From a virus (taxonomy: Duplodnaviria > Caudoviricetes), in IMG/VR virus record IMGVR_UViG_3300031228_000006, positions 1 to 61,388 of that record: a DNA stretch of 61,388 nucleotides; one strand, 5' to 3'. How positions within the stretch are numbered: position 1 is the first letter of the stretch; each line of letters starts with the position of its first letter. A model generated the notes under the pieces. That model saw only the letters and a list, made by a program, of their open reading frames with translations, did not search any database and had not been told where the DNA came from. The translations under genes and the position numbers were made by a program. This document shows, piece after piece, positions 1 through 61,336 of the stretch.

Positions 1-289
1 GTAAGGCGCCTAAGAGGTCCAAAGGGGTACTCCCCCACCCCTTTGATCGTGGAGTTGTGCACACATTGCAACGACTTGGGTCTCGCGAGTACCAAAGATG
101 GACACGTATCAACGAGTGAACAAGGGCAACGAGAGGCATCACTAAGCGCACTCGATCACTAGTAGTGGTGTGCACTAGTGAGGTCATTGCAATGTGTATG
201 CGTGTACGTATGTCATCGATGCGTAGATAGTCACCATGGCCCATGTGTGTGGGGGTACGTAGTCATAGTGGGCCATACGTGTGGACAGT

Positions 290-479
290 AGATCCTCCTG
301 TATATGCACCAATGTGCAGGAGGATCTCTCGTATACAGGGGTATATGCAGGATGGGGGTAGGTATGTGCATGTGAACAGGAAGATGTGTGGTGCATAGGT
401 AGAAAGACAGGAGGATCTGTTGTGTAGGTAGGTATGGGACAGCAAGACATCCATATATACGGGGTAATAGCAGGAGGAT
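290..479 (+). repeat. Degenerate ~31-bp-period repeat (core CAGGAGGAT) near the genome end
   Basis: Cores at 317, 348, 377, 408, 440 and 471, plus an inverted copy at 290-300, in C-poor non-coding DNA. Confidence 0.65.
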
Positions 480-534
480 ATGTGGTGCTAGCAGTAGCAA
501 GCACCCTGTTAGCAGGGCTCAGAAGTATGTGTGA

Positions 535-549
535 TCTCAGGATGTGGAC
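535..549 (+). promoter_or_regulatory. TCTCA-N5-TGGAC operator-like site
   Basis: TCTCAggatgTGGAC; one of 9 intergenic copies. Confidence 0.6.
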
Positions 550-702
550 AACGAATATGTGGGCCCTGACCTGGGAAAACGCAACTAATGTATGTGCGAC
601 GTTCGTTCTCTAGTTGTGAACCCCCGTTGTTAGCGGCCAGTGTTCTTCTCGTAGCACCCGCCCCGCTCACACAGGGGGTGAGCGTGCAGGAGCAAAGCAT
701 TA

Positions 703-724
703 GTTTGAAAACTCAACAGTGTGT
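703..724 (+). promoter_or_regulatory. rrn-leader-like boxA/CL2 antitermination element
   Basis: GTTTGAAAACTCAACAGTGTGT closely resembles the actinobacterial rRNA leader motif (TTGAGAACTCAAYAGYGTG) as I recall it. It sits at the head of the long early arm. Confidence 0.65.
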
Positions 725-1140
725 GCAGATCATCCGCCCGGCGGTGAATTCTGTCTGAAGCCCGATCTACCGGCGCCCCTGGTCCTCTCGACCGGATGCA
801 GGCGCCGACACGGTCACACTGCTTCCCCGTGCACGGCACGGCGGACGGTGACCACGGGAGACGACGACGGATGCCACGGTTCCTAGGTTTCGGGGGCGCT
901 TCGGTGCCAGCAGGACTACGCGGGATGTGATCGGAAGACGCACGATGAACGAGACAGCAAGTAGCCCCAACGTGCTACCGCGTGATTGCCGAGAATCCAG
1001 AGGGACGGAATGGCCCGAAGGTAGGTGAGCAACGGTGAGAGGCAGGGGAAGAAAGCGACCCGACAGGGTGAGGTACAACGACAGGCCTGCCGCATGGGCC
1101 TGTCTGGCAGTGATCGCAAACGGTGATCTGTCCCAGCAAC
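725..1140 (+). ncRNA. Candidate large structured non-coding RNA
   Basis: No credible ORF. Many stems: CGGCGCC/GGCGCCG, GGTCAC/GTGACC, GGCGC-TTCG-GTGCC, TACGCGG/CCGCGTG, GACAGGCCTG/TGGGCCTGTC. Confidence 0.45.
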
Positions 1141-1143
1141 ATC

Positions 1144-1205
1144 GGCGCGCATGGGTTCCCTGACACATGCGAGCAAGTCACCCGGTTCGATCCCGGGGCG
1201 CGCCA
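1144..1205 (+). ncRNA. tRNA-like element (acceptor stem plus T-arm, no canonical D-arm)
   Basis: 7-bp stem GGCGCGC (1144-1150)/GCGCGCC (1198-1204), followed by A. T-arm CCCGG-TTCGATC-CCGGG (1181-1197). Confidence 0.6.
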
Positions 1206-1239
1206 CTCAGACCACCTAGCACCAACTGAGGAGATTCCC

Positions 1240-1458
1240 ATGTCCTACATCATTCGCATCCTTGTCGACGGACAGGCCAACGACTGGCACCACGACAGCG
1301 AGATCATTGCAGAGGCTCGCTACTCCAGCACGGAGCACCTGGTCACCAATGACGACCGCTACCACGACTTTGAGGTCTCGGTCCAGTTGATTGAGTCCTT
1401 CACCGATGGCCGCGAGCCTGAGGTGCGCTACGAATTCACGAAGCCCATGGGCGAGTGA
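1240..1458 (+). CDS. hypothetical protein
   Basis: GAGGAG RBS, ATG at 1240, phage-like codon usage. Confidence 0.8.
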   Translation: MSYIIRILVDGQANDWHHDSEIIAEARYSSTEHLVTNDDRYHDFEVSVQLIESFTDGREPEVRYEFTKPMGE

Positions 1459-1462
1459 CCAA

Positions 1463-1523
1463 GCCGAAACGTCGCGAGACGTCCGTGCCCGGATGGCTTC
1501 CGGCACGCTGATGAGGCAAGCCA
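1463..1523 (+). ncRNA. Type II hammerhead ribozyme with loop I/3' tail pseudoknot
   Basis: GCC-GAAA-CGTC(gcga)GACG-TC-CGTGCC(loop)GGCACG-CTGATGA-GGC. Loop TGGCTT is complementary to AAGCCA at 1518-1523. Predicted cleavage after GUC (C1483). Confidence 0.92.
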
Positions 1524-1541
1524 CCTACCGAGGAGTTCACC

Positions 1542-1769
1542 ATGCACGATTACCACGTCGTCACGTTCGATCACGAGAAGGCGGCCGACTCCCTGGTCAG
1601 CGACCTGACCACGCTGAAGGTCCCCGACTTCATCGCCTACCCGTTCGAGTCGGCCTATGCGGTCGCCGTACGGATCCCGGATGGCGTGAGCACCGCCGAT
1701 CACATGGCGGCGGTCAAAGCCATTGCCCTGGGGCGCGGCTCGCACAACGTCCGATTCGCGAGGTTCTGA
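1542..1769 (+). CDS. hypothetical protein
   Basis: GAGGAG RBS, 75 aa ORF. Confidence 0.8.
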   Translation: MHDYHVVTFDHEKAADSLVSDLTTLKVPDFIAYPFESAYAVAVRIPDGVSTADHMAAVKAIALGRGSHNVRFARF

Positions 1770-1930
1770 TGTTCCACGTTCACGTCAGGACCTACAACAT
1801 CGCCACCCGCACGTGGACGCGCGAATTCGGACGCGCGTTCTCCTCCTACTCCCGCGAAGAGGCAGAGGCCAACTACGCGGAACAGCGTCGGGACCTTCCC
1901 GACGCCGAGATCACGATCACCGAAGACTGA
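1769..1930 (+). CDS. hypothetical protein
   Basis: TGATG coupling with the upstream gene; begins MFHVHVRTY. Confidence 0.7.
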   Translation: MFHVHVRTYNIATRTWTREFGRAFSSYSREEAEANYAEQRRDLPDAEITITED

Positions 1931-1957
1931 CCAACCACACCGGGCCCACGGGCCCGC

Positions 1958-2035
1958 GTGCCTGCCGGGGTACGGCGATGGCGACACGACCGCACATGCG
2001 GCGCGTTAGGGGTTCGACTCCCCCGCTGGGCACCA
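1958..2035 (+). ncRNA. Second tRNA-like element ending in ACCA
   Basis: T-loop GGGG-TTCGACT-CCCC, terminal pairing GTGCCT/GGGCAC, then CA. Intergenic. Confidence 0.45.
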
Positions 2036-2064
2036 AAGCACACCCACAACAACAGGAGATCATC

Positions 2065-2457
2065 ATGAGCACCTTCCGAGGATTCACCGTCGGCCTGATC
2101 ACGCGAGTCGAGCGCGCTGGCAACCATCACCTGGACCGGAACACCCTGAAGTTCTTCAACGCCTACGGTGGCACGCACGCGCCGATCAGTGACGACGCCG
2201 TAGCCGTGGTCGAGTCGGTCAAGTTCGACGACGAGCCGCGCGTCTACCGCGTGATGCTGTTCCGGTTCTTCCCGGCCGCCAAGCACGCCGAGACGCACGA
2301 GCGGTGCGAGTCGGCCGCGATCACCACGAACGGCACCAAGTACGCCGCCGAGAAGGCGCTCACCGACTTCGCCCGGGTCGCCCGGGCGAAGGGCGTGGCG
2401 TACTGGTCCGAGAACGACCGCTGGCTGAGCCGCCAGGAGAACTACAAGGGCTTCTGA
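2065..2457 (+). CDS. hypothetical protein
   Basis: CAGGAG RBS; begins MSTFRGF. Confidence 0.8.
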   Translation: MSTFRGFTVGLITRVERAGNHHLDRNTLKFFNAYGGTHAPISDDAVAVVESVKFDDEPRVYRVMLFRFFPAAKHAETHERCESAAITTNGTKYAAEKALTDFARVARAKGVAYWSENDRWLSRQENYKGF

Positions 2458-2464
2458 CACCTTG

Positions 2465-2501
2465 CATCGGCCATCCGTTCGAGGGGGATGGATGGCCGGT
2501 G
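2465..2501 (+). other. Long intergenic stem-loop without U-tract (RNase III-like processing site?)
   Basis: CATCGGCCATCCGT pairs with ATGGATGGCCGGTG. Confidence 0.45.
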
Positions 2502-2537
2502 TTCAGTGCCACGACACCCACCGAGAAAGGCACCATC

Positions 2538-3095
2538 ATGAGCGACCACGCACGCCCGACCGACTACACCCGCGAGGAGTGCCTCCAGGCTGCCCGCGAC
2601 GCCGAGCACGTCGCGGCCCACTCCGGCACCACCGAGATGCGAGAGCACTCCACACGCCTTGCCGCTGAATGGCGCGCACGGGCCGAAGCCCTGGACACCG
2701 ACACCCGCGACGAGCACTGCAACACCTGCGCCCACGCGCCCGGCTCGCACATCCTGCACGCCCACGTTGAGTCCGAGTCTGCCGACTGCGACGGCCGGTA
2801 CTCCCGAGACTACGTTCTCACCATGTGGGACGACGAGAAGACCGACGAGATGGGTGACCTGAAGTTCGAGTCACGCGTCATTGGCGACGTGGTGAGCACC
2901 AACTACCCCGGCACGCTCACGGTCACCCCGGCCGATCCGAGCGACCCCATCCGCGACCCGGCCATGCTGGAGTGGAGCGCCTCTACCGAAGAGGGATTCG
3001 AGGCCAAGGTCGTCCGGTTCTGCCGCGATGCCGACTGCGACCTGGACGAGCCCGGCACCCAGCGCGACCACAGCGCCGAAGCCGCCGGTTACTGA
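2538..3095 (+). CDS. hypothetical protein
   Basis: GAAAGG RBS, 185 aa. Confidence 0.8.
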   Translation: MSDHARPTDYTREECLQAARDAEHVAAHSGTTEMREHSTRLAAEWRARAEALDTDTRDEHCNTCAHAPGSHILHAHVESESADCDGRYSRDYVLTMWDDEKTDEMGDLKFESRVIGDVVSTNYPGTLTVTPADPSDPIRDPAMLEWSASTEEGFEAKVVRFCRDADCDLDEPGTQRDHSAEAAGY

Positions 3096-3097
3096 CC

Positions 3098-3199
3098 ATG
3101 GCCACCGTGCCGAAGCGACCGACCCCCAAGCCGTTCGCGCCCATCACCCACACCGTACGCAACTCCGCCCGGGTCCCCGGGCAGACCAGAAAGGCATGA
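3098..3199 (+). CDS. small basic hypothetical protein
   Basis: Fills the gap between genes with an ATGA overlap downstream. Confidence 0.45.
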   Translation: MATVPKRPTPKPFAPITHTVRNSARVPGQTRKA

Positions 3200-3687
3200 C
3201 CATGCGCATCCACACCAACACCATCGAACTCGCCGACGTCTACCGCGCCGATGTCCCGGCGCGTACTCAGGTCAACGTCACCGTGCACGGATCCCGCACC
3301 CACGCCCGCGCGTTCGAGGTCAGCCTGACCGGCGAGTCCCGCCGCAACAACCAGTCCAACACGGGCAAGGCTGCCACCTGGGACCAGTGGGGAGTCTTCC
3401 TCTCCGTCCTCTTCGACCGCGACCCCGAGATGGTGGTCGGATCGGTCAAGCGTCCGGTCTACGCTGACCGCTATGACTTCGACCGCAAGACCAACGGCCG
3501 GTTCGGACCCACCGACACCAACGGAGTCCGCTACGACATGAACCCCGGCACCACGGCACCCGTCGGCCGCTACTGGCCCACCGATGCCCACGGTGACCAC
3601 AAGTTCGAGTTCGAGGGCGTCCGCTACGACAGCGCGATCGTCCACCGATGCACCAAGTGCACCGCCGCACAGATCCGGTTCGCCTGA
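3196..3687 (+). CDS. hypothetical protein
   Basis: ORF with typical codon usage and C-terminal CxxC. Confidence 0.8.
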   Translation: MTMRIHTNTIELADVYRADVPARTQVNVTVHGSRTHARAFEVSLTGESRRNNQSNTGKAATWDQWGVFLSVLFDRDPEMVVGSVKRPVYADRYDFDRKTNGRFGPTDTNGVRYDMNPGTTAPVGRYWPTDAHGDHKFEFEGVRYDSAIVHRCTKCTAAQIRFA

Positions 3688-3944
3688 TGAGCGACGCGAT
3701 CCCCTACTGGGAAGTCAACGATGAGCGCGTGCTGCCCGAGACCCTGCCTAAGGTCCTGGAGGTCATCACCGCACAGGAGAACGCCACTGGTGAGCCGATC
3801 GACCGCAACCGACTCACGTTCGCCTGCCTGACCTGTGGATCGACTGCCGAGGTCAAGAGCCCCGAAGAGCGCGATACCACAGCGCTCCACCTGTCCATGC
3901 CGTGCGCCGAGTCACACGACACGGTCTACTTTCTGTCCAAATAG
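3687..3944 (+). CDS. hypothetical Zn-binding protein
   Basis: TGATG coupling; CxxC...HxxxxC. Confidence 0.75.
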   Translation: MSDAIPYWEVNDERVLPETLPKVLEVITAQENATGEPIDRNRLTFACLTCGSTAEVKSPEERDTTALHLSMPCAESHDTVYFLSK

Positions 3945-3959
3945 CGGTCCTCCAGTCAT

Positions 3960-3996
3960 CCGCCCATCCCATGGAACGACAGCATGGTATGGGCGG
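3960..3996 (+). other. Intergenic stem-loop without U-tract
   Basis: CCGCCCATCCCATG pairs with CATGGTATGGGCGG. Confidence 0.4.
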
Positions 3997-4036
3997 GTCA
4001 TCGGGTCGACCGACCCCACCTGAACAGGAGATCATC

Positions 4037-4105
4037 GTGAACACCATCATCAACGCGCTGGGCCGCTTCATCATGGCGTTCGAGCGCTTCCTGGAGGGAC
4101 GCTGA
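4037..4105 (+). CDS. small peptide (22 aa)
   Basis: CAGGAG RBS, GTG start. Confidence 0.5.
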   Translation: MNTIINALGRFIMAFERFLEGR

Positions 4106-4107
4106 CC

Positions 4108-4473
4108 ATGCTGGAGAAGATCGCCCAACTCTTCCTTGCCCACCTGCTCACCTGGGCCGTCGTCGGCATCCTGGGCTCGTACGTGGCCAACGCCTACTAC
4201 ACCGATCTGGAGGGTGTCGACCACCCGGACCAGGTCATGGCGACCCGCCCCGACGCGCCCGGCACCGACCGCGCCCTCTGGACCCAGTACGAGGACAAGT
4301 GCTGGAGGTACGAGGCCAGGGGTGAGGCTACCGGCGCCATCCTGCGCGTCGACCCCAACGACCCGTTCGTTTACACGACCAAGCCCCGGCTGGTCCAGCG
4401 AGCGATCGACCAAGCCGTTAACAAGCACGACCGAGGGCTCGACCGAGTCCTCGCCTTCTGCACCGACAAGTAA
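4108..4473 (+). CDS. membrane-anchored hypothetical protein
   Basis: N-terminal hydrophobic helix. Confidence 0.75.
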   Translation: MLEKIAQLFLAHLLTWAVVGILGSYVANAYYTDLEGVDHPDQVMATRPDAPGTDRALWTQYEDKCWRYEARGEATGAILRVDPNDPFVYTTKPRLVQRAIDQAVNKHDRGLDRVLAFCTDK

Positions 4474-4485
4474 AGGACACCCACC

Positions 4486-4665
4486 ATGATCTGGCTCGCC
4501 CTAGCCGTCACGATCGTCTACGTCTTGACGACCACCACCGTCCTCGCCACCCCGCAGGTGGCCAGCCCTCGCCGTAGCGTCGTCTGCTACCTGGTCACGA
4601 CGTTCTGCGTCGCTTTGGTCTGGTTCACGGCGTACGGCTACTACAACATGCGAGTCCCGGCATGA
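4486..4665 (+). CDS. small membrane protein (2 TM)
   Basis: AAGGA RBS; begins MIWLALAVTIV. Confidence 0.65.
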   Translation: MIWLALAVTIVYVLTTTTVLATPQVASPRRSVVCYLVTTFCVALVWFTAYGYYNMRVPA

Positions 4666-4796
4666 TCACGCAAGCCACGGCCATCATGGCCCGCGCCGAC
4701 TACAACAGCAACGAGGGGCTGGCATGGATCCTGATCGGCGGCGCCATCATGCTGTTCATCCTCTGGCTGATCGGCCCCAGCGACAGGAACAAGTGA
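4662..4796 (+). CDS. small membrane protein
   Basis: ATGA overlap; hydrophobic segment LAWILIGGAIMLFILWLI. Confidence 0.6.
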   Translation: MITQATAIMARADYNSNEGLAWILIGGAIMLFILWLIGPSDRNK

Positions 4797-4888
4797 TGAC
4801 GTTCCGCCAGGGCTTCACCGCCGCCGTCCTCTGCATCCTGCCCGTCTGGGCAGGCGTCATCATCTACATCATTCGAACGAAAGGCTGA
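4796..4888 (+). CDS. small membrane peptide
   Basis: TGATG coupling; hydrophobic, 30 aa. Confidence 0.55.
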   Translation: MTFRQGFTAAVLCILPVWAGVIIYIIRTKG

Positions 4889-4892
4889 ACCC

Positions 4893-5039
4893 ATGGCAAC
4901 CCACCACCCCGCGTGCCCCGCCCGCCACGACCCGAACAAGCAGTGCATCTGCGCAGGCCTGGGCCGTCCGCCGAAGAAGCCGACGAGCCCCAAGACCCCC
5001 AACACTCCGAAGCGCCCCGGCGGAAGGCCCAAGCGATGA
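4893..5039 (+). CDS. small basic hypothetical protein
   Basis: H/C-containing N-terminus, K/P-rich tail, ATGA overlap. Confidence 0.5.
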   Translation: MATHHPACPARHDPNKQCICAGLGRPPKKPTSPKTPNTPKRPGGRPKR

Positions 5040-5536
5040 GCGGCCTGCAAGTCGGCGACAGGGTCCGACTGATCAACGACGACGAGCCCAAACTCAAGAG
5101 GGCGGGGGTCGTCAACGGTCACACCGGCACGATCACCCTCGCCGATACTGTCCCGCCCGACGCCGTCCAGTTCGTGGAGTGGCGCCCAGACGGAAGGGAT
5201 GGATTCCGCGACGGGGACGTCTTCAAGGCGAACCGATTCGAGAAGATGCCCACCACGGGTCCCGGCGAGGCCATCGCCGCCGTCCAGCAAGCCAACTTCG
5301 AGGGCTTCTCGGATCTGGTCGACGCCGAGAACGCCAAGATGGTGGACCAGGCCGAGAAGGACCAGATCACCGCCCTTCAGGACATGCTCAACGAGGCCGA
5401 GGGTCAACTCATCGTCGCCCGCGACTCCCTGAGCCGACAAGCCGCCGTCACCAACTGGCTGTGCGAGTCCGACCCCGAACTGAAAGCCAAGATCAACGCC
5501 TTCAGCGCTGGTTGGACCCGCGCTAAGCGCTCCTGA
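5036..5536 (+). CDS. hypothetical protein (SH3/KOW-like N-terminus, coiled coil)
   Basis: Begins MSGLQVGDRVRL. Confidence 0.75.
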   Translation: MSGLQVGDRVRLINDDEPKLKRAGVVNGHTGTITLADTVPPDAVQFVEWRPDGRDGFRDGDVFKANRFEKMPTTGPGEAIAAVQQANFEGFSDLVDAENAKMVDQAEKDQITALQDMLNEAEGQLIVARDSLSRQAAVTNWLCESDPELKAKINAFSAGWTRAKRS

Positions 5537-5537
5537 G

Positions 5538-5552
5538 TCTCACATCGTGGAC
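5538..5552 (+). promoter_or_regulatory. TCTCA-N5-TGGAC operator-like site
   Basis: TCTCAcatcgTGGAC, intergenic. Confidence 0.6.
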
Positions 5553-5616
5553 AGTCACTAGCCTGTCCTCGGTGTGATCCGACAGGATCGACACCCACTA
5601 GAGAAACGAGATCATC

Positions 5617-5958
5617 ATGAGCGACCGATACGACCGCCTGCCGAAGTGGGCGCACGAGGAGATCCTTGACCTCCAGCGTCGCGCCCTGGCCGCCGAGAAC
5701 GACGCCACCCTGGCCCGCCGGGAGGCCAGCGAGGCCAACCCCGACACCCGCACCTTTCTGGACGCCGGGTTCGGCCGCGAGGACATCCCGCTTCCCGAGC
5801 GCCAGAACGTCATCTTCAAGTTGCCCAACGGCAAAGTGACCGTCCGCGAGGAGAGCGGCAGCGTCTACGTGAACACCGTCAGTGACGGCAGGACGATCAC
5901 GGTTGTCATGCCGCACGCCTCCAACGCTCTCACGATCGCTCTGGTGGAGATCCGGTGA
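5617..5958 (+). CDS. hypothetical protein
   Basis: 113 aa ORF. Confidence 0.8.
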   Translation: MSDRYDRLPKWAHEEILDLQRRALAAENDATLARREASEANPDTRTFLDAGFGREDIPLPERQNVIFKLPNGKVTVREESGSVYVNTVSDGRTITVVMPHASNALTIALVEIR

Positions 5959-6566
5959 GGACCATCTTCGGCCGGGTCCACATGACCCGTGAGGAGTGGC
6001 TCAACGCCGCCGCCGCCCGGCTGGCCACCGACTTCGATGACGTCTTCGCCGAGCACGGCAAGCCGGAGATCTTCAGGAACGCCATGTACGCGGCCGGATG
6101 GCCGAGCCGTGGCGGCCAGTCCAAGGTGATCGGGCAGTGCTGGCCGACCAGCGCGTCCGGGGTCGCCCACGTCTTCATCAACCCCCGCCTCGGTGAGGAC
6201 ATCGTCGAGGTCCTCGCCACCCTCGCCCACGAGATGGCGCACGCCGCTGACGACTGTGGGTCAGGCCACAAGGGCCCCTTCACCAAGATGATCCGCAAGA
6301 TGGGCCTGACCGGGAAGCCCACGGCCACCGTGGCCGGTGAGGAGTTCGAGGCTTGGGCCAAGTCGGCCGCCGCCGCGCTGGGGCCCTACCCCCACAAGGC
6401 GATCACCGGCGTCAACCCCAACCTGAAGAAGCAGGTCAGCCGCCAGTTGAAGGTGTACGCCAAGGACTGCGACTCCTGCGACTACGTCGCCCGGACCACC
6501 CGCAAGTGGCTGGACGACCTGGGGGCGCCCAAGTGCCCCCACGGCGTCACCATGACCGAAGCCTGA
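5955..6566 (+). CDS. SprT-like zinc metalloprotease domain protein
   Basis: TLAHEMAH (HExxH), downstream GHKGPF and C-terminal Cys motifs. Confidence 0.75.
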   Translation: MRTIFGRVHMTREEWLNAAAARLATDFDDVFAEHGKPEIFRNAMYAAGWPSRGGQSKVIGQCWPTSASGVAHVFINPRLGEDIVEVLATLAHEMAHAADDCGSGHKGPFTKMIRKMGLTGKPTATVAGEEFEAWAKSAAAALGPYPHKAITGVNPNLKKQVSRQLKVYAKDCDSCDYVARTTRKWLDDLGAPKCPHGVTMTEA

Positions 6567-6600
6567 CCCGTTTACACGACCAGAGAGAGACACCCACATC

Positions 6601-7194
6601 ATGAAGAAGAACGAGATCAAGATCGGCGAGCACTACGCCTACCAGGAGCACTCCTACTCCCGGGTCTACCGGGTCATGGTCGAGGCCGAGGCGCAGATCC
6701 CGAAGGCCAAGTACCCGAAGTACGGTAACCAGAACACCGTCACCGGTTGGCGTCTCCGCATGGCCGACGGCGGCAAGTTCTCCGTCACGGGGTCGAACTG
6801 GACCACCACCAAGGTCGACACCATCGACGTCCCGAGCCGCACCCTGCTGGCCACCTGGGCCGACCACGTCGCCGCTCGCGAGGCCAGCGAGAAGGCCCAG
6901 CGAAAGGCCGCCGAGCACCGCCTGGAGGGACTCACCAAGAAGTTCCGACTCCTGTTGCAGGTCAGCGACGCGATGGACTTCCTCCAGCCCGAGCGCGAGT
7001 ACCGCGAGGTCACCCTGCGCAACGGCCATGCCGAGGCGGCAAGGGCGGCCGGATGGACCGTCACCATCGGGGCGATCCGCACCCGGCTCGACCTCGGTCA
7101 CGGCTACTTCGATGTCTCCCGAGACGAGGTCAGCCTGAAGGATGTCGCCGTCCTCGCGCGGGCGATCGTCGACACCCCCGAGTACACCGAGTGA
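6601..7194 (+). CDS. hypothetical protein
   Basis: 197 aa ORF. Confidence 0.8.
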   Translation: MKKNEIKIGEHYAYQEHSYSRVYRVMVEAEAQIPKAKYPKYGNQNTVTGWRLRMADGGKFSVTGSNWTTTKVDTIDVPSRTLLATWADHVAAREASEKAQRKAAEHRLEGLTKKFRLLLQVSDAMDFLQPEREYREVTLRNGHAEAARAAGWTVTIGAIRTRLDLGHGYFDVSRDEVSLKDVAVLARAIVDTPEYTE

Positions 7195-7370
7195 AGAGCA
7201 AGGCTCTGCTGATCTGGGGCGCGGTGGCACTGGTCATCGCGCCCTTCTTCACCATCCCCGTCCTGATGCTGGTCGCCGTCGTGTGGCTGTGCGTCTACCT
7301 GTCCAAGTCTCCCCAGCGGGACGCGGCCAACATCAACCACCTCGCCAACGAAGGGCGCCACTGGCTATGA
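7191..7370 (+). CDS. small membrane protein
   Basis: GTGA overlap; hydrophobic. Confidence 0.6.
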   Translation: MKSKALLIWGAVALVIAPFFTIPVLMLVAVVWLCVYLSKSPQRDAANINHLANEGRHWL

Positions 7371-7810
7371 CGATCGACCAACTCCCCCTCCTCTTCGACT
7401 GGGACGACTTCGAGGAGGCCGTCCGGACCGGACGCTTCAGCACCATCCGGGACGCGAAGATCTTCGTCGCCAAGGTGCTCGGTCTGGATGCCAAGATCAA
7501 CCACGACGTCTGGCGACAGATCAAGGGCGGCATGTTCCCCGAGGAGCGCAAGATGCTCACCGGCCTGCCGCCCTACGACTTCGGCAAGTACGAGGCCGAG
7601 CGGATGAGGCGACTGGCCGAGTTCGGCCAGGACCCGCCGCCGCGCCCCGACCCCACGTCGAAGTGCTCCCACTGCGACACCCCCCTGAACGACGAGAACA
7701 TCGCCCTGCGGATCCGCAAGCCGTACGCCATCTGGCAGTGCCTCAACTGCGAGCGGATCCGCAGCCGGAACCGCCGAGCCGCCAATCGCAACCAGAAAGC
7801 GAGCACATGA
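7367..7810 (+). CDS. Zn-finger hypothetical protein
   Basis: CSHC...CLNC followed by a basic tail. Confidence 0.7.
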   Translation: MTIDQLPLLFDWDDFEEAVRTGRFSTIRDAKIFVAKVLGLDAKINHDVWRQIKGGMFPEERKMLTGLPPYDFGKYEAERMRRLAEFGQDPPPRPDPTSKCSHCDTPLNDENIALRIRKPYAIWQCLNCERIRSRNRRAANRNQKAST

Positions 7811-8193
7811 TCAACTCCCACACGCGAGACCAGCGCGTCATCCTGGCCGGAACCACCGTCGTCGAGTTGACGGCAGAGCACCGCATGACCCTCCTTCTGA
7901 CCGGCAACCGGCGCAAGTTGGTCGAGCGCGTCGAGGCGCGCTGGCAGCGCACTCTGGATCAGATCCTGGATCGCCCGAGCATGTACCTCTCGAACATGAC
8001 GTGGAGCGGCCGGAACGTCCTGAAAGACTCCAGCATCGGTGCCGAGTGGTCCGAGTCCTACCCTCGCCCGGCGCACGGTCACTCCCAGACCATCGTCCAC
8101 CTGCGCACCATCGAGGACATCCTCGCGATCCAGGTCCAGAAGGACCAGCAGGCGGCCGTCCAGGCGCTGAAGGCCCGGATGGGGACGCTGTGA
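7807..8193 (+). CDS. hypothetical protein
   Basis: ATGA overlap. Confidence 0.75.
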   Translation: MINSHTRDQRVILAGTTVVELTAEHRMTLLLTGNRRKLVERVEARWQRTLDQILDRPSMYLSNMTWSGRNVLKDSSIGAEWSESYPRPAHGHSQTIVHLRTIEDILAIQVQKDQQAAVQALKARMGTL

Positions 8194-12667: not shown

Positions 12668-12897
12668 TGATCGAGACCCTCATCTACATCGCGCTCTTCA
12701 TCGTCGGATGGATCACGATCGGCGGCTTCGTCGCGATCTGGTTCAACTACCTGATCTTCAAGAAGATGCCCAAGGACGATGAGGTCTTCATCGGCTTCTT
12801 CGCCCTGGTCTGGCCGGTCGTTCTTGTGATGTCGATCGCCATCGTGATCAGCCGCTGGACTGTCCGTGCGGTCTCCTGGGCACAAAAGCGTGGGTGA
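12667..12897 (+). CDS. membrane protein (2 TM)
   Basis: Two hydrophobic helices. Confidence 0.75.
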   Translation: MIETLIYIALFIVGWITIGGFVAIWFNYLIFKKMPKDDEVFIGFFALVWPVVLVMSIAIVISRWTVRAVSWAQKRG

Positions 12898-13117
12898 CAT
12901 CGAGAACGCCGCCAAGGCCCTGAGCCACATGCCTCGGTGGGTTGCGATCCACGAGAACACGCTGGCCAAACTGGACGTGATCGTGGCCATGGCTGGCGCC
13001 GAGGGATACGACGTCGATGACATCCTGAGAGATCTGGATGAGGTTCGCCGCGAGCGCGATCGAGCCATTGGAGTAGATCCTGACGGACCTCCAAAAAAGC
13101 ACGCCCCCCGGCCGTAG
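12890..13117 (+). CDS. hypothetical protein
   Basis: Overlapping GTG start. Confidence 0.6.
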   Translation: MGDIENAAKALSHMPRWVAIHENTLAKLDVIVAMAGAEGYDVDDILRDLDEVRRERDRAIGVDPDGPPKKHAPRP

Positions 13118-13130
13118 CCAGGGGGCGTGC
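13099..13130. terminator. Hairpin between convergent genes
   Basis: GCACGCCCCC...GGGGGCGTGC preceded by AAAAAA, which is a U-tract on the - strand. Confidence 0.6.
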
Positions 13131-13144
13131 TCCATGGGGGAAGA

Positions 13145-13777
13145 CTACGGGGTCTCGTCCACGTAGGTGAACCCGCCGGTGAGCGTGTCGGTACCGCTCG
13201 GGTTGGTCGCGACCACGTTGACCGCACCGGCCGCGTGAGCGCCGGTCGTCACGGTGATCTCGTCGTCGTCCACGACATCGAACGCCGTACCGGCCACGCC
13301 ACCGAAGGTCACGCCGGTCACGCGGATCAGGTTCTGACCCTTGATGGTGACCACGGTGCCACCGGCGATGTCGCCCTCGGCGGGCTCGACCGTCTCGATG
13401 TTCGGGACATCGGTGTCCACGCCGCCAGCGTCGAAGTCGTAGTCGTGCTCGACGTCGCCCTCGTCCTGGGGCCAGTAGGGATCCTCGCGGTTCTCCGCCA
13501 GGGTCGGGTCGTTCGCGGGCAGGGCGCCGGTAGCGAGCCCGGCGTCGCCGGTCAGGTCGACCAGTCCGGAGCCCTTCAGGGTGCCGGTGTAGTCGGTCTG
13601 GTTGTCGTTGCCGACCTCGGGCGTGTACGAAGCGTTGACAGCCTTGTCGGCGCCCGGCGTGGCGAGGTTGGCCGAGTTCTTCGCGTACCCGTTCGCGATC
13701 AGCCATTCCTCCTCGGGTCCGGTGTAGGTCCCACCCGGCTGGACGCCGTAGACCTCGGAAGTGACGGTTACCGCCAT
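13145..13777 (-). CDS. IPT/TIG (Ig-like) domain protein, probably virion-associated
   Basis: P.IETVEPAEG..AGGTVVTIKG.NL...V.FGG...VDDDEITVTT...AGAVNV IPT signature; AGGAGG RBS. Confidence 0.8.
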   Translation of the reverse strand: MAVTVTSEVYGVQPGGTYTGPEEEWLIANGYAKNSANLATPGADKAVNASYTPEVGNDNQTDYTGTLKGSGLVDLTGDAGLATGALPANDPTLAENREDPYWPQDEGDVEHDYDFDAGGVDTDVPNIETVEPAEGDIAGGTVVTIKGQNLIRVTGVTFGGVAGTAFDVVDDDEITVTTGAHAAGAVNVVATNPSGTDTLTGGFTYVDETP

Positions 13778-13827
13778 GATGGTTCCTCCTGTTGGATTGA
13801 GTCGACTCGACCTCAGTCTACCGCGAC

Positions 13828-14145
13828 TCAGCGCCGCTCGCCTGGGTGCTGTTCGACCCGCCGCTCACGCTTCGGCTTCCGCCGATTCCGGCCCTGGATC
13901 GCCTGCTGCGCCGTCACCTGCTTGTGGTGGTGTTTGCACAGGGTGCGCAGGGCCCACATGGCGTGGTTGCGGCGGCCGTACATGTGGTCGACTTCGAGTT
14001 CCTCGGTGCGCGGGCACCGCTTCCCCGAGGGGAGGATGAACTTGCACTGGAACTCGTCACGCTCCTTGACCCGCTGAGCGATCTTCCACCAATCCGGCGG
14101 TAGGTCGTCCTTGCGGTCCGAGTCAGCCCACCGGCCCGACACCAT
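13828..14145 (-). CDS. HNH endonuclease (packaging-associated type)
   Basis: LPPDW..I..RV.ERD...C...C....EVDH...NH....L.TLC..HH..VT; resembles terminase-associated HNHs of cos phages. Confidence 0.85.
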   Translation of the reverse strand: MVSGRWADSDRKDDLPPDWWKIAQRVKERDEFQCKFILPSGKRCPRTEELEVDHMYGRRNHAMWALRTLCKHHHKQVTAQQAIQGRNRRKPKRERRVEQHPGERR

Positions 14146-14311
14146 TGGCGTCTTCCTTGTCGAAGTAGGGCAGGCTGGCGGCGATCACCCGGCGCACCAT
14201 CTCGGCCTGAGAGACGCCATACTGAGCCGCGACGCGCCGGATGTCCTCGCGCATCTCAACGTCCGTCAGCACCTGGAGAGGTGTGGCGTTGTACTTCTTC
14301 GGCGGCGGCAT
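14123..14311 (-). CDS. ribbon-helix-helix (CopG/Arc-like) DNA-binding protein
   Basis: PLQVLTDVEMREDIRRVAAQYGVSQAEMVRRVI fits the RHH pattern. Confidence 0.7.
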   Translation of the reverse strand: MPPPKKYNATPLQVLTDVEMREDIRRVAAQYGVSQAEMVRRVIAASLPYFDKEDANGVGPVG

Positions 14312-14314
14312 AGT

Positions 14315-14329
14315 GTCCATCCCTTGAGA
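14315..14329 (-). promoter_or_regulatory. TCTCA-N5-TGGAC operator directly upstream of the RHH start codon
   Basis: + strand GTCCAtccctTGAGA, 3 nt from the ATG at 14311. Confidence 0.65.
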
Positions 14330-14400
14330 CAAGTGGTATGTACCACCCACTATACCTCTGATAGGTTTCGATCATCACTATAGGCTCCCCAGGAGGAGAC

Positions 14401-48049: not shown

Positions 48050-48889
48050 TCAAGCGTCCGGCTTCCAATCCTTCGATCCAGTCTCGCGCCAGTGGTTGTA
48101 GCCCTGGCGGAAGTTGTTGATGGCTTCCTTGCCCTTGCCGACGCCCCACAGGCCCCACAGTTCGGCGGCCTCCAGCGACTCCTTGGCGTACTTGTCGTCG
48201 CGCGAGTAGACCGGCTTCAGTGAGCAGTGGCACTCGTCGTGGACCTTGGCATCTGCGGCGCCGGTGAAGCGCGAGTTCGATTCCCGGAAGGAGTCCTCGT
48301 TGAACGGGCGCCACTCGAACCTGCTGGCCAGCATTACGCAGAAGTAGCAGGGGCCGGTCTCGCTGGTGCCGAGCACCCTGACGTACGCCAGGGCGGTCTC
48401 ATCCTTCGCGGAGTTCTCGAAGATCGTCTGGCGCCCTCCGGCCTGGGCGTGCCGGAGCGTGGCGGCGGCCAGGTTGTTGGCGATGATCAACTGCTCCTTG
48501 CTGGATAGCCTCTTGACGCCGTCGTCCTTCTTCTTCATCTTGTTGGCGTAGTCGTAGGGGCCCACGGCCAGCAGGGACTCGCGTACGCCCTGGTCCACGG
48601 TGCCGGTGGCGATCACCGGCGAGTAGAGCGGGGCGCCGGGTGCCTCGATGCCTCGGATGCCGAGGAAGTACGCCGCCGCGCGCCGGGCGCTGTCGTCGGA
48701 GGTCTTGATCAGCGCCGGGACCATGAGATCCAGCCAGCGGTTCACGCTGGCCAGACTCATCGGGTCCACCTTCTGGAGGTAGTAGGCGGCGACGATCGCG
48801 GCGATCTTGTCGGCCGCCATACCCTCGACGCGCCGGTACGCCTCCGTCAGTGCCACCGCCTGGGCGATCTGGGCCTCACTCAGTGTCAC
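48050..48889 (-). CDS. capsid maturation / MuF-like head protein
   Basis: GGR.T...YVRV...PCYFCVMLASR...HDECHC. Confidence 0.75.
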   Translation of the reverse strand: MTLSEAQIAQAVALTEAYRRVEGMAADKIAAIVAAYYLQKVDPMSLASVNRWLDLMVPALIKTSDDSARRAAAYFLGIRGIEAPGAPLYSPVIATGTVDQGVRESLLAVGPYDYANKMKKKDDGVKRLSSKEQLIIANNLAAATLRHAQAGGRQTIFENSAKDETALAYVRVLGTSETGPCYFCVMLASRFEWRPFNEDSFRESNSRFTGAADAKVHDECHCSLKPVYSRDDKYAKESLEAAELWGLWGVGKGKEAINNFRQGYNHWRETGSKDWKPDA

Positions 48890-61305: not shown

Positions 61306-61336
61306 CACCCCCGAGCCATCCCCCGGCTCGGGGGTG
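61306..61336 (+). terminator. Terminator hairpin
   Basis: CACCCCCGAGCC/GGCTCGGGGGTG. Confidence 0.65.

Follow-up and report, generated by a model that had tools for sequence, protein, structure and literature searches.

A probable type II hammerhead ribozyme between two genes of an uncultured phage

Introduction

The 83-nt gap between two small genes in an uncultured phage genome holds a sequence laid out like a hammerhead ribozyme, and the question that this locus raises is whether the sequence cleaves itself and, if it does, what a cut at this place would do to the messages on either side. The DNA analysed, called the window throughout, is a complete IMG/VR virus record of 61,388 bp, whose sequence occurs in a soil-metagenome DNA run that may be its source, and in no RNA run listed. 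An initial annotation had read positions 1463-1523 as a complete type II hammerhead and had remarked that such ribozymes are already known in phages, as indeed they are, having been described in 2011 (PMC3088659). We conclude, with a probability that we put at about 80%, that positions 1462-1525 of the + strand form a genuine type II hammerhead, which self-cleaves at C1483 and lies in sense within a polycistronic mRNA. Below we set out the evidence from architecture, model scores, family covariation and gene context, and weigh three other readings of the same sequence.

Results

The genome and the gene block that carries the element

Judged by its PHROG matches, which include a WhiB-like regulator, an SprT-like protease family, an exonuclease, endonuclease VII, a tape measure, minor tail proteins, a portal and a terminase, the genome is that of an uncultured actinobacterial siphovirus. 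The terminase is at most 39% identical to that of any cultured phage, the best match being Microbacterium phage Footloose, and megablast and blastn searches against phage records returned no near record, only a 66-nt match to Rhodococcus phage E3. The structural, primase and helicase genes lie on the − strand between 25.4 and 59.5 kb, and small genes occupy the + strand from 1240 to about 25 kb and again from 60.0 kb up to the record's end. The neighbours of the element belong to this non-structural + strand block and are as follows.

1240-1458, + strand: upstream gene, 72 aa, with a Shine-Dalgarno sequence GAGGAG at 1228-1233, a TGA stop at 1456-1458 and a GC3 of 0.82
1531-1536, + strand: Shine-Dalgarno sequence GAGGAG of the downstream gene, 7 nt past the pseudoknot tail of the element
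1542-1769, + strand: downstream gene, 75 aa, with its ATG at 1542 and a GC3 of 0.87

Neither gene has a match in PHROGs or Pfam. The Atlas model of the upstream protein is confident (pLDDT 0.81) and points to no family; that of the downstream protein (pLDDT 0.80) gives fold-level leads only, again with no family. The initial annotation had placed the element between two early genes. It does lie between two genes, which present small size, the + strand, membership of no family and a place in the non-structural block; early timing is no more than plausible from their position.

Upstream of these genes, positions 1-1240 hold no convincing gene, and the GC content here is lower (0.588 over 1-2000). 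Four CAGGAGGATCT-like 17-mer copies are found at 317-487, together with inverted repeats at 61-75/183-197 and 285-314/394-423, and the stretch, which precedes the gene block with the hammerhead, may serve in regulation or as an origin. A tRNA-like minihelix occupies 1144-1204 (+ strand): inside a GC-rich stem of 7 bp (GGCGCGC/GCGCGCC), after which comes an A, lies a 5-bp hairpin whose loop, TTCGATC, resembles a T-loop. Neither ARAGORN nor Rfam made a call at 1144-1204, no tRNA genes were found in the window and no integrase appears among its PHROG matches; the minihelix could represent a tRNA 3' portion retained as the core of an attachment site, or else a tRNA-like element. Elsewhere in the genome, a small island of − strand genes (12848-14350) interrupts the + strand block; among its products are an HNH endonuclease (13831-14145) and, encoded at 13148-13777, a protein of 210 aa that has an IPT/TIG domain. 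Where the last + strand genes stop, just short of the record's end, a 12-bp GC-rich hairpin followed by CTTCGTTCTC (61306-61336, + strand) has the appearance of a terminator.

Architecture of the element

The element can be divided into the following parts.

1462-1525, + strand: whole putative type II hammerhead ribozyme, its extent taken from the full-length covariance-model matches
1462, + strand: A preceding the first stem II strand
1463-1465, + strand: 5'-proximal strand of stem II, GCC (positions 11.3-11.1), pairing with GGC at 1515-1517
1466-1468, + strand: core G12 A13 A14 (GAA), whose columns are invariant in alignment A1
1469-1482, + strand: stem III hairpin of 5 bp, A15.1-CGTC/GACG-U16.1, with the GNRA loop GCGA at 1474-1477
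1483, + strand: C17, the predicted cleavage-site nucleotide, with the putative cut at 1483/1484
1484-1507, + strand: stem I hairpin of 6 bp, CGTGCC (1484-1489) with GGCACG (1502-1507), flush with the core
1490-1501, + strand: stem I loop, cggatggcttcc, 12 nt
1494-1499, + strand: pseudoknot strand TGGCTT within loop I, a 6-bp complement of AAGCCA
1508-1514, + strand: core C3 U4 G5 A6 U7 G8 A9, CTGATGA
1515-1517, + strand: 3'-proximal strand of stem II, GGC (positions 10.1-10.3), pairing with GCC at 1463-1465
1518-1523, + strand: 3' tail AAGCCA, the partner of loop I, directly 3' of stem II

The order GCC-GAAA, stem III hairpin, UC, stem I hairpin, CUGAUGA-GGC is that of the type II permutation, in which stems I and III are capped and stem II is open. 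All the nucleotides required of the core are present, namely C3 U4 G5 A6 N7 G8 A9, G12 A13 A14, the pair A15.1-U16.1 (A1469-T1482) and, at position 17, where any nucleotide but G is accepted, a C, and alignment with RF02276 and with the two models described below, R1 and R2, gives no core mismatch. The pairs that adjoin the core (C1484-G1507, G1515-C1465 and A1469-T1482) are all standard. The helices measure 6 bp (stem I, where an inner GGA/UCC extension is possible), 3 bp (stem II) and 5 bp (stem III). In the common type II form, loop I and the nucleotides that follow stem II make a pseudoknot of 4 bp or more; the element offers 6 bp, and the minimum-energy fold of 1459-1528 recovers the three-way junction. 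As far as sequence can tell, the element thus agrees with the pseudoknot form of the type II hammerhead (RF02276) at every structural criterion tested and falls short of the Rfam score threshold only. Re-reading the sequence reproduced the parsing of 1463-1523 given in the initial annotation exactly, including its count of 58 nt between the cut and the downstream ATG (1484-1541).

Chance match or ribozyme

An element of this appearance could be an inactive look-alike, either a chance match or a decayed relic without a useful rate of cleavage. The frequency of the core pattern argues against this. The descriptor CGAAA N8-30 TC N18-48 CTGATGAG matches once in the window, compared with an expectation of 0.01, and found a match in one of 100 dinucleotide-preserving shuffles; this descriptor leaves out the 3+5+6 helix pairs and the six pseudoknot pairs. 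The intactness of the core, which deviates at no position and is adjoined by no mispair, argues in the same direction. The Rfam score, on the other hand, favours a look-alike. The Infernal search that had been proposed as a check did return a full-length match, with RF02276 (Hammerhead_II) aligned end to end (model positions 1-66 of 66), but at 27.3 bits this match lies below the gathering cut-off of 37 bits, which is an operational threshold and not a structural definition. The E-value is 8e-4 when 221 nt are searched and 0.23 over the whole window. What lowers the score is how stem I and its loop are laid out, together with a short loop on stem III and the stem II register. By itself, the Rfam match does not settle what the element is.

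Two models built from phage-type hammerheads bear more directly on its identity. Model R1 was made from 71 distinct hammerheads among 137 pattern matches in 129 IMG/VR loci, with the window left out and with rows kept when the core measured 53-59 nt and GGC was followed by A. R1 scores the element at 58.3 bits, a large part of which is circular, because the search pattern that yielded the loci, 21 nt long, had itself been taken from the core and stem II of the window. Model R2 was made from 9 of the 10 hammerheads of the Streptomyces phage Puginator that pass the Rfam threshold; none of these was retrieved by the window-derived pattern, and the Puginator copy that had first been found by its BLAST similarity to the window was omitted. 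This independent model scores the element at 43.4 bits, with an E-value near 5e-10 on a rough calibration and with 17 of 17 modelled pairs standard, which is hard to reconcile with a chance resemblance. The claim of a complete type II hammerhead, with full core, three helices and type II order, is borne out. With filters off, the runner-up in the window reached 12.5 bits with R1 and 12.1 bits with R2, and we therefore count one hammerhead copy in the window. No other ribozyme class was found there, a search of Rfam at E≤5 giving unrelated weak matches only.

Folding energies were less informative. The z-score is -1.0 over 70 nt and +0.65 in a 161-nt context, where the nested minimum-energy fold is not the hammerhead, a point in favour of a look-alike. 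Since these z-scores are not distinctive, thermodynamic stability was dropped as evidence for the ribozyme.

In the 161-nt minimum-energy fold, GAAGCC at 1440-1445 (+ strand), inside the upstream gene and near its end, pairs with GGCTTC of loop I and could compete there with the pseudoknot tail.

Covariation in the family

Alignment A2 was obtained by searching 100 sources with R1, these being the window, one Puginator locus (L132) and 98 of the 129 IMG/VR loci. It holds 129 matches at E≤1e-4, which make up 127 distinct rows and span 29.2-77.2 bits, a range in which the window falls near the centre. Over the 127 rows and 21 pairs, 94.2% of cells hold a standard pair, compared with 66.1% after shuffling and with 26.0-41.3% when the partners are slid by 1-3 columns. 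Two-sided changes occur at 19 of the 21 pairs and all four helices, the pseudoknot among them, covary. Stem II (helix 1) is paired in 99.7% of cells, stem III (helix 2) in 99.6%, with two-sided changes at 5 of 6 pairs, and stem I (helix 3) in 94.7%, with such changes at all 7 pairs. For the pseudoknot the corresponding values are 81.4% and 5 of 5 pairs, and it was absent from the model to which A2 was fitted. A script-based comparison had given a mean of 4.33 bp for each member's own tail and 3.19 bp for permuted tails; it is superseded by the pairing result from A2.

The tertiary contact that had been proposed between TGGCTT of loop I and AAGCCA at 1518-1523 is upheld by these data, having 6 bp in the window and a covarying counterpart in the family. 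The particular pseudoknot TGGCT/AAGCCA is common to 6 of the 129 A2 rows, the window and five others, whose stem I sequences are unrelated. In the window, 10 nt separate the cleavage site from TGGCT and 9 nt separate TGGCT from CUGAUGA, and both distances are identical in 4 of the 5 other members with this pseudoknot. A 6-bp contact with the spacing of its relatives is a further point against a look-alike. The proposed cleavage after C1483 fits the core layout, and of 113 family members that were parsed, 111 have C at position 17 and 2 have A; the parse was made with a crude script, which left 16 sequences unparsed and over-extended stem I into the loop.

Two other patterns were seen among the viral contigs. 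In six loci (L027, L043, L049, L057, L083 and L085) the tail after GGC is CATCAG, the exact complement of the core CTGATG, which replaces the partner of loop I and could, from its sequence, mask the core. A single 71-kb viral contig carries six pattern-matching type II hammerheads within about 4 kb (L068-L071, roughly 2250-6350), all with GATC-type pseudoknots.

Placement between genes

The element lies in sense orientation in the gap between the two genes, 4 nt separating the stop codon from GCC at 1463 and 24 nt separating the ribozyme from the ATG. This slot is the usual one for viral type II hammerheads. An upstream frame of at least 60 codons that ends at most 40 nt away on the same strand is present at 106 of 133 distinct viral loci, compared with 36 when strands are flipped, and in 80 of these 106 the gap from stop to GCC is between -1 and 3 nt. 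Downstream, a Shine-Dalgarno sequence and the start of a frame of at least 60 codons follow within 60 nt at 94 of the 133 loci, compared with 5 when flipped, and the gaps are mostly 20-32 nt. A family-typical slot on the coding strand again speaks against an inactive look-alike.

The context also bears on whether the sequence is a ribozyme-like element at all. Three mechanical open reading frames cross it (1391-1930 on the + strand, and 1216-1524 or 1428-1745 on the − strand) and it contains two GC-rich hairpins, so that one might read it as protein-coding or as a terminator or attenuator. We consider this very improbable. The crossing frames have a GC3 of 0.60-0.66, compared with 0.82-0.87 in the flanking genes; there is no terminator-like site in 1-3200, and a T run follows neither hairpin; and hairpins alone would leave 15 invariant core nucleotides unexplained. 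Scans for promoters and terminators around the element added nothing to its interpretation.

Relatives of the locus

A search for related loci matched the downstream gene weakly to a single locus (L002, with 44% identity across 38 aa); queries with the upstream gene and with the SprT-like gene at 5955-6563 returned nothing. L002 carries no hammerhead, its best R1 score being 10.7 bits. A tblastx comparison of window positions 1-8000 with the hammerhead loci revealed no flanking genes in common. Among the five cultured phages nearest by terminase (Footloose, Bbif-1, BroPlease, phiHau3 and phiScoe3), none has an RF02276 match at E≤0.01, and the identical search recovered 10 in Puginator. The unshared flanking genes, L002 and the result for the nearest phages together indicate that the element is sporadic. 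No relative was found to have a homologous spacer in which conservation of this copy itself might be seen.

This last point weakens the case somewhat, since there is no orthologous spacer in which purifying selection might be seen, and so does the fact that the genome contains this sole copy. When these points, the sub-threshold score and the competing fold are set against the intact core, the score from R2, the pseudoknot and the slot, we regard an inactive look-alike as quite unlikely and retain the reading of the element as a genuine type II hammerhead.

Discussion

Comparison with known systems

The type II consensus of Perreault et al. (2011; PMC3088659), in the portions of that paper drawn on here, has a pseudoknot that joins loop I to the nucleotides just past stem II, and the reduction of this pseudoknot from six to four pairs was accompanied by a loss of rate of about 20-fold. 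The same portions describe stem II as often just 2 pairs long. The window's element resembles the type II hammerheads of these passages in its core, its permutation, its short open stem II, its pseudoknot of at least 4 bp and its setting among phage or prophage genes. Which genes flank the ribozymes is described there as variable (PMC3088659), with which the sporadic occurrence seen here agrees. It departs from the norm of RF02276 in its score below the cut-off, its short stem III with a 4-nt loop and its stem I of 6 bp with a 12-nt loop, and further in stem II, where the middle pair is C-G and no extra nucleotide follows A9. It is also the only copy in the window and not one of a cluster.

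Puginator (PP978857.1; L138) is the closest comparison. Between 42033 and 50135 of its record, on the − strand, 10 type II hammerheads pass the Rfam threshold with 37.9-60.4 bits within about 8 kb. All are on the gene strand in annotated intergenic gaps between small genes, and none of the 10 is annotated in the record. Like the window, then, this is an actinobacterial phage with sense-strand intergenic elements between small hypothetical genes, and its copy at 48477-48540 is the nearest relative of the window's element (76.9% identity by BLAST, 75.8% in A2). The two phages are distantly related, with terminases 37-46% identical, and have no flanking genes in common. Most Puginator copies, unlike the window's, read GGC-GAAA ... 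CUGAUGA-U-GCC in stem II, and there are 10 of them compared with one.

Two other systems can be likened to the window's by description, from parts of the respective papers. Three type II hammerheads near phage-like genes of Desulfovibrio vulgaris cleave in vivo and in vitro (PMC8782182); they belong to the same Rfam family and have a similar phage-like gene context, but reside at chromosomal loci of a proteobacterial host. In the haloviruses HF1 and HF2, a variant called HHphage lies in the early region, 13 nt ahead of a helicase ORF, and the 5' end of a transcript was mapped within 3 nt of the cleavage site (PMC3088659). HHphage resembles the window's element in its place just upstream of a gene start and differs in being a core variant in an archaeal virus.

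A functional analogy, and no more than that, can be drawn between the window's element and the glmS ribozyme of Gram-positive bacteria, whose fold is unrelated and whose activity depends on a metabolite. This ribozyme cleaves in cis in an mRNA leader, and its 5'-OH product alters the decay of the downstream message. Collins and colleagues reportedly found in 2007 that this product is destabilised through RNase J1.

Proposed cleavage and its consequences

The most likely function of the element, judged from its layout, is self-cleavage after C1483, which would separate two cistrons. During transcription the stem III hairpin (1469-1482) would fold first and the stem I hairpin (1484-1507) next. 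CUGAUGA-GGC (1508-1517) would then close the three-way junction through the pairing of GGC with GCC at 1463-1465, and the tail AAGCCA (1518-1523) would pair with UGGCUU of loop I (1494-1499), so bringing stem I alongside stem II. With stem II and the pseudoknot in place, the 2'-OH of C1483 would attack its 3' phosphate, so that the upstream RNA would terminate in a 2',3'-cyclic phosphate and C1484, the first nucleotide of the downstream RNA, would carry a 5'-OH. Such an attack and such product ends are established hammerhead chemistry. The same ends are given for hammerhead products in the consulted part of PMC8782182.

The predicted cut would detach the cistron at 1240-1458 from that at 1542-1769 and the genes behind it. 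Only the 3 bp of stem II would hold the products together, so that they should part at once. The upstream message would keep its stop codon and, 25 nt after it, end with the stem III hairpin and its GNRA cap. Starting 58 nt ahead of the ATG, the downstream message would open with the flush hairpin of stem I and retain its Shine-Dalgarno sequence. With its own signals and a terminal hairpin retained on each message, independent decay and translation would be possible. An uncoupling of the fates of cistrons has been proposed for long phage transcripts (PMC3088659, in the part used here).

How the downstream message might fare would depend on the RNases that it meets. Ends with a 5'-OH evade RNase E, in so far as it depends on a 5'-monophosphate, and in the glmS case they are targeted by RNase J1; actinobacteria possess both RNase E and RNase J. 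Given the glmS precedent, in which the 5'-OH product is reportedly destabilised via RNase J1, the downstream message in an actinobacterial host may be either stabilised or destabilised. If the element is a genuine cutter, the odds are roughly even that simple separation of the cistrons is its whole function.

A more elaborate possibility is that the ribozyme is active but gated by translation, so that it cleaves only when the last codons of the gene at 1240-1458 are free of ribosomes. Cleavage would then not be constitutive: it would either signal translation of the upstream cistron or take its timing from it. The footprint of a ribosome reaches past the stop codon. As the stop codon lies 4 nt before the ribozyme, a terminating ribosome would occupy GCC-GAAA as well as the stem III 5' half. 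The stop gap of -1 to 3 nt in 80 of 106 viral loci, next to 4 nt in the window, is what one might expect of such a device, and GAAGCC in the upstream gene, which can pair with loop I in the 161-nt fold, would provide an alternative partner. Against this, compaction of the genome explains the tight spacing equally well, the downstream side also being near its minimum once the pseudoknot tail and the Shine-Dalgarno sequence are accommodated. No conserved alternative structure was found, and the class cleaves during in vitro transcription, where no ribosome is present (PMC8782182, in the part consulted). For the window's element we hold gating to be unlikely.

At the level of the group, we have a related suggestion, which we regard as doubtful, that phage type II hammerheads, the window's included, may be translation-coupled separators of cistrons rather than passive cutters. 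If this were true, a ribozyme placed 0-4 nt past a stop codon would fold only when no ribosome was on the last codons, and a stem II of 2-3 bp would let the products part immediately. Both new ends would be capped by hairpins, the 3' end by stem III and the 5'-OH end by a flush stem I. The phage would in this way set the relative lifetimes of adjacent messages, in a direction that depends on the 5'-end-dependent RNases of the host.

Significance

Taken by itself the finding is minor and ordinary in kind: phage hammerheads of this class have been known since 2011, and the window adds one that is cleanly built and scores below the threshold. Its wider bearing is on annotation. The Rfam cut-off misses a real-looking subclass that models built from phage sequences recover, and phage hammerheads are therefore under-annotated. 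Cultured actinobacteriophages hold unannotated copies, for example the 10 in Puginator. A literature search returned no description of natural hammerheads in actinobacteriophages, mycobacteriophages or Streptomyces phages, although the supplementary alignments of 2011 may include some, and their occurrence in actinobacteriophages seems to have gone unremarked in print. We add as a tentative side claim that actinobacteriophages may carry many such ribozymes that records and papers do not mention. The regular slot, with a stop codon abutting the ribozyme and a Shine-Dalgarno sequence following at 20-30 nt, offers a testable handle on the role of phage hammerheads, and Puginator offers a culturable system in which this role may be studied.
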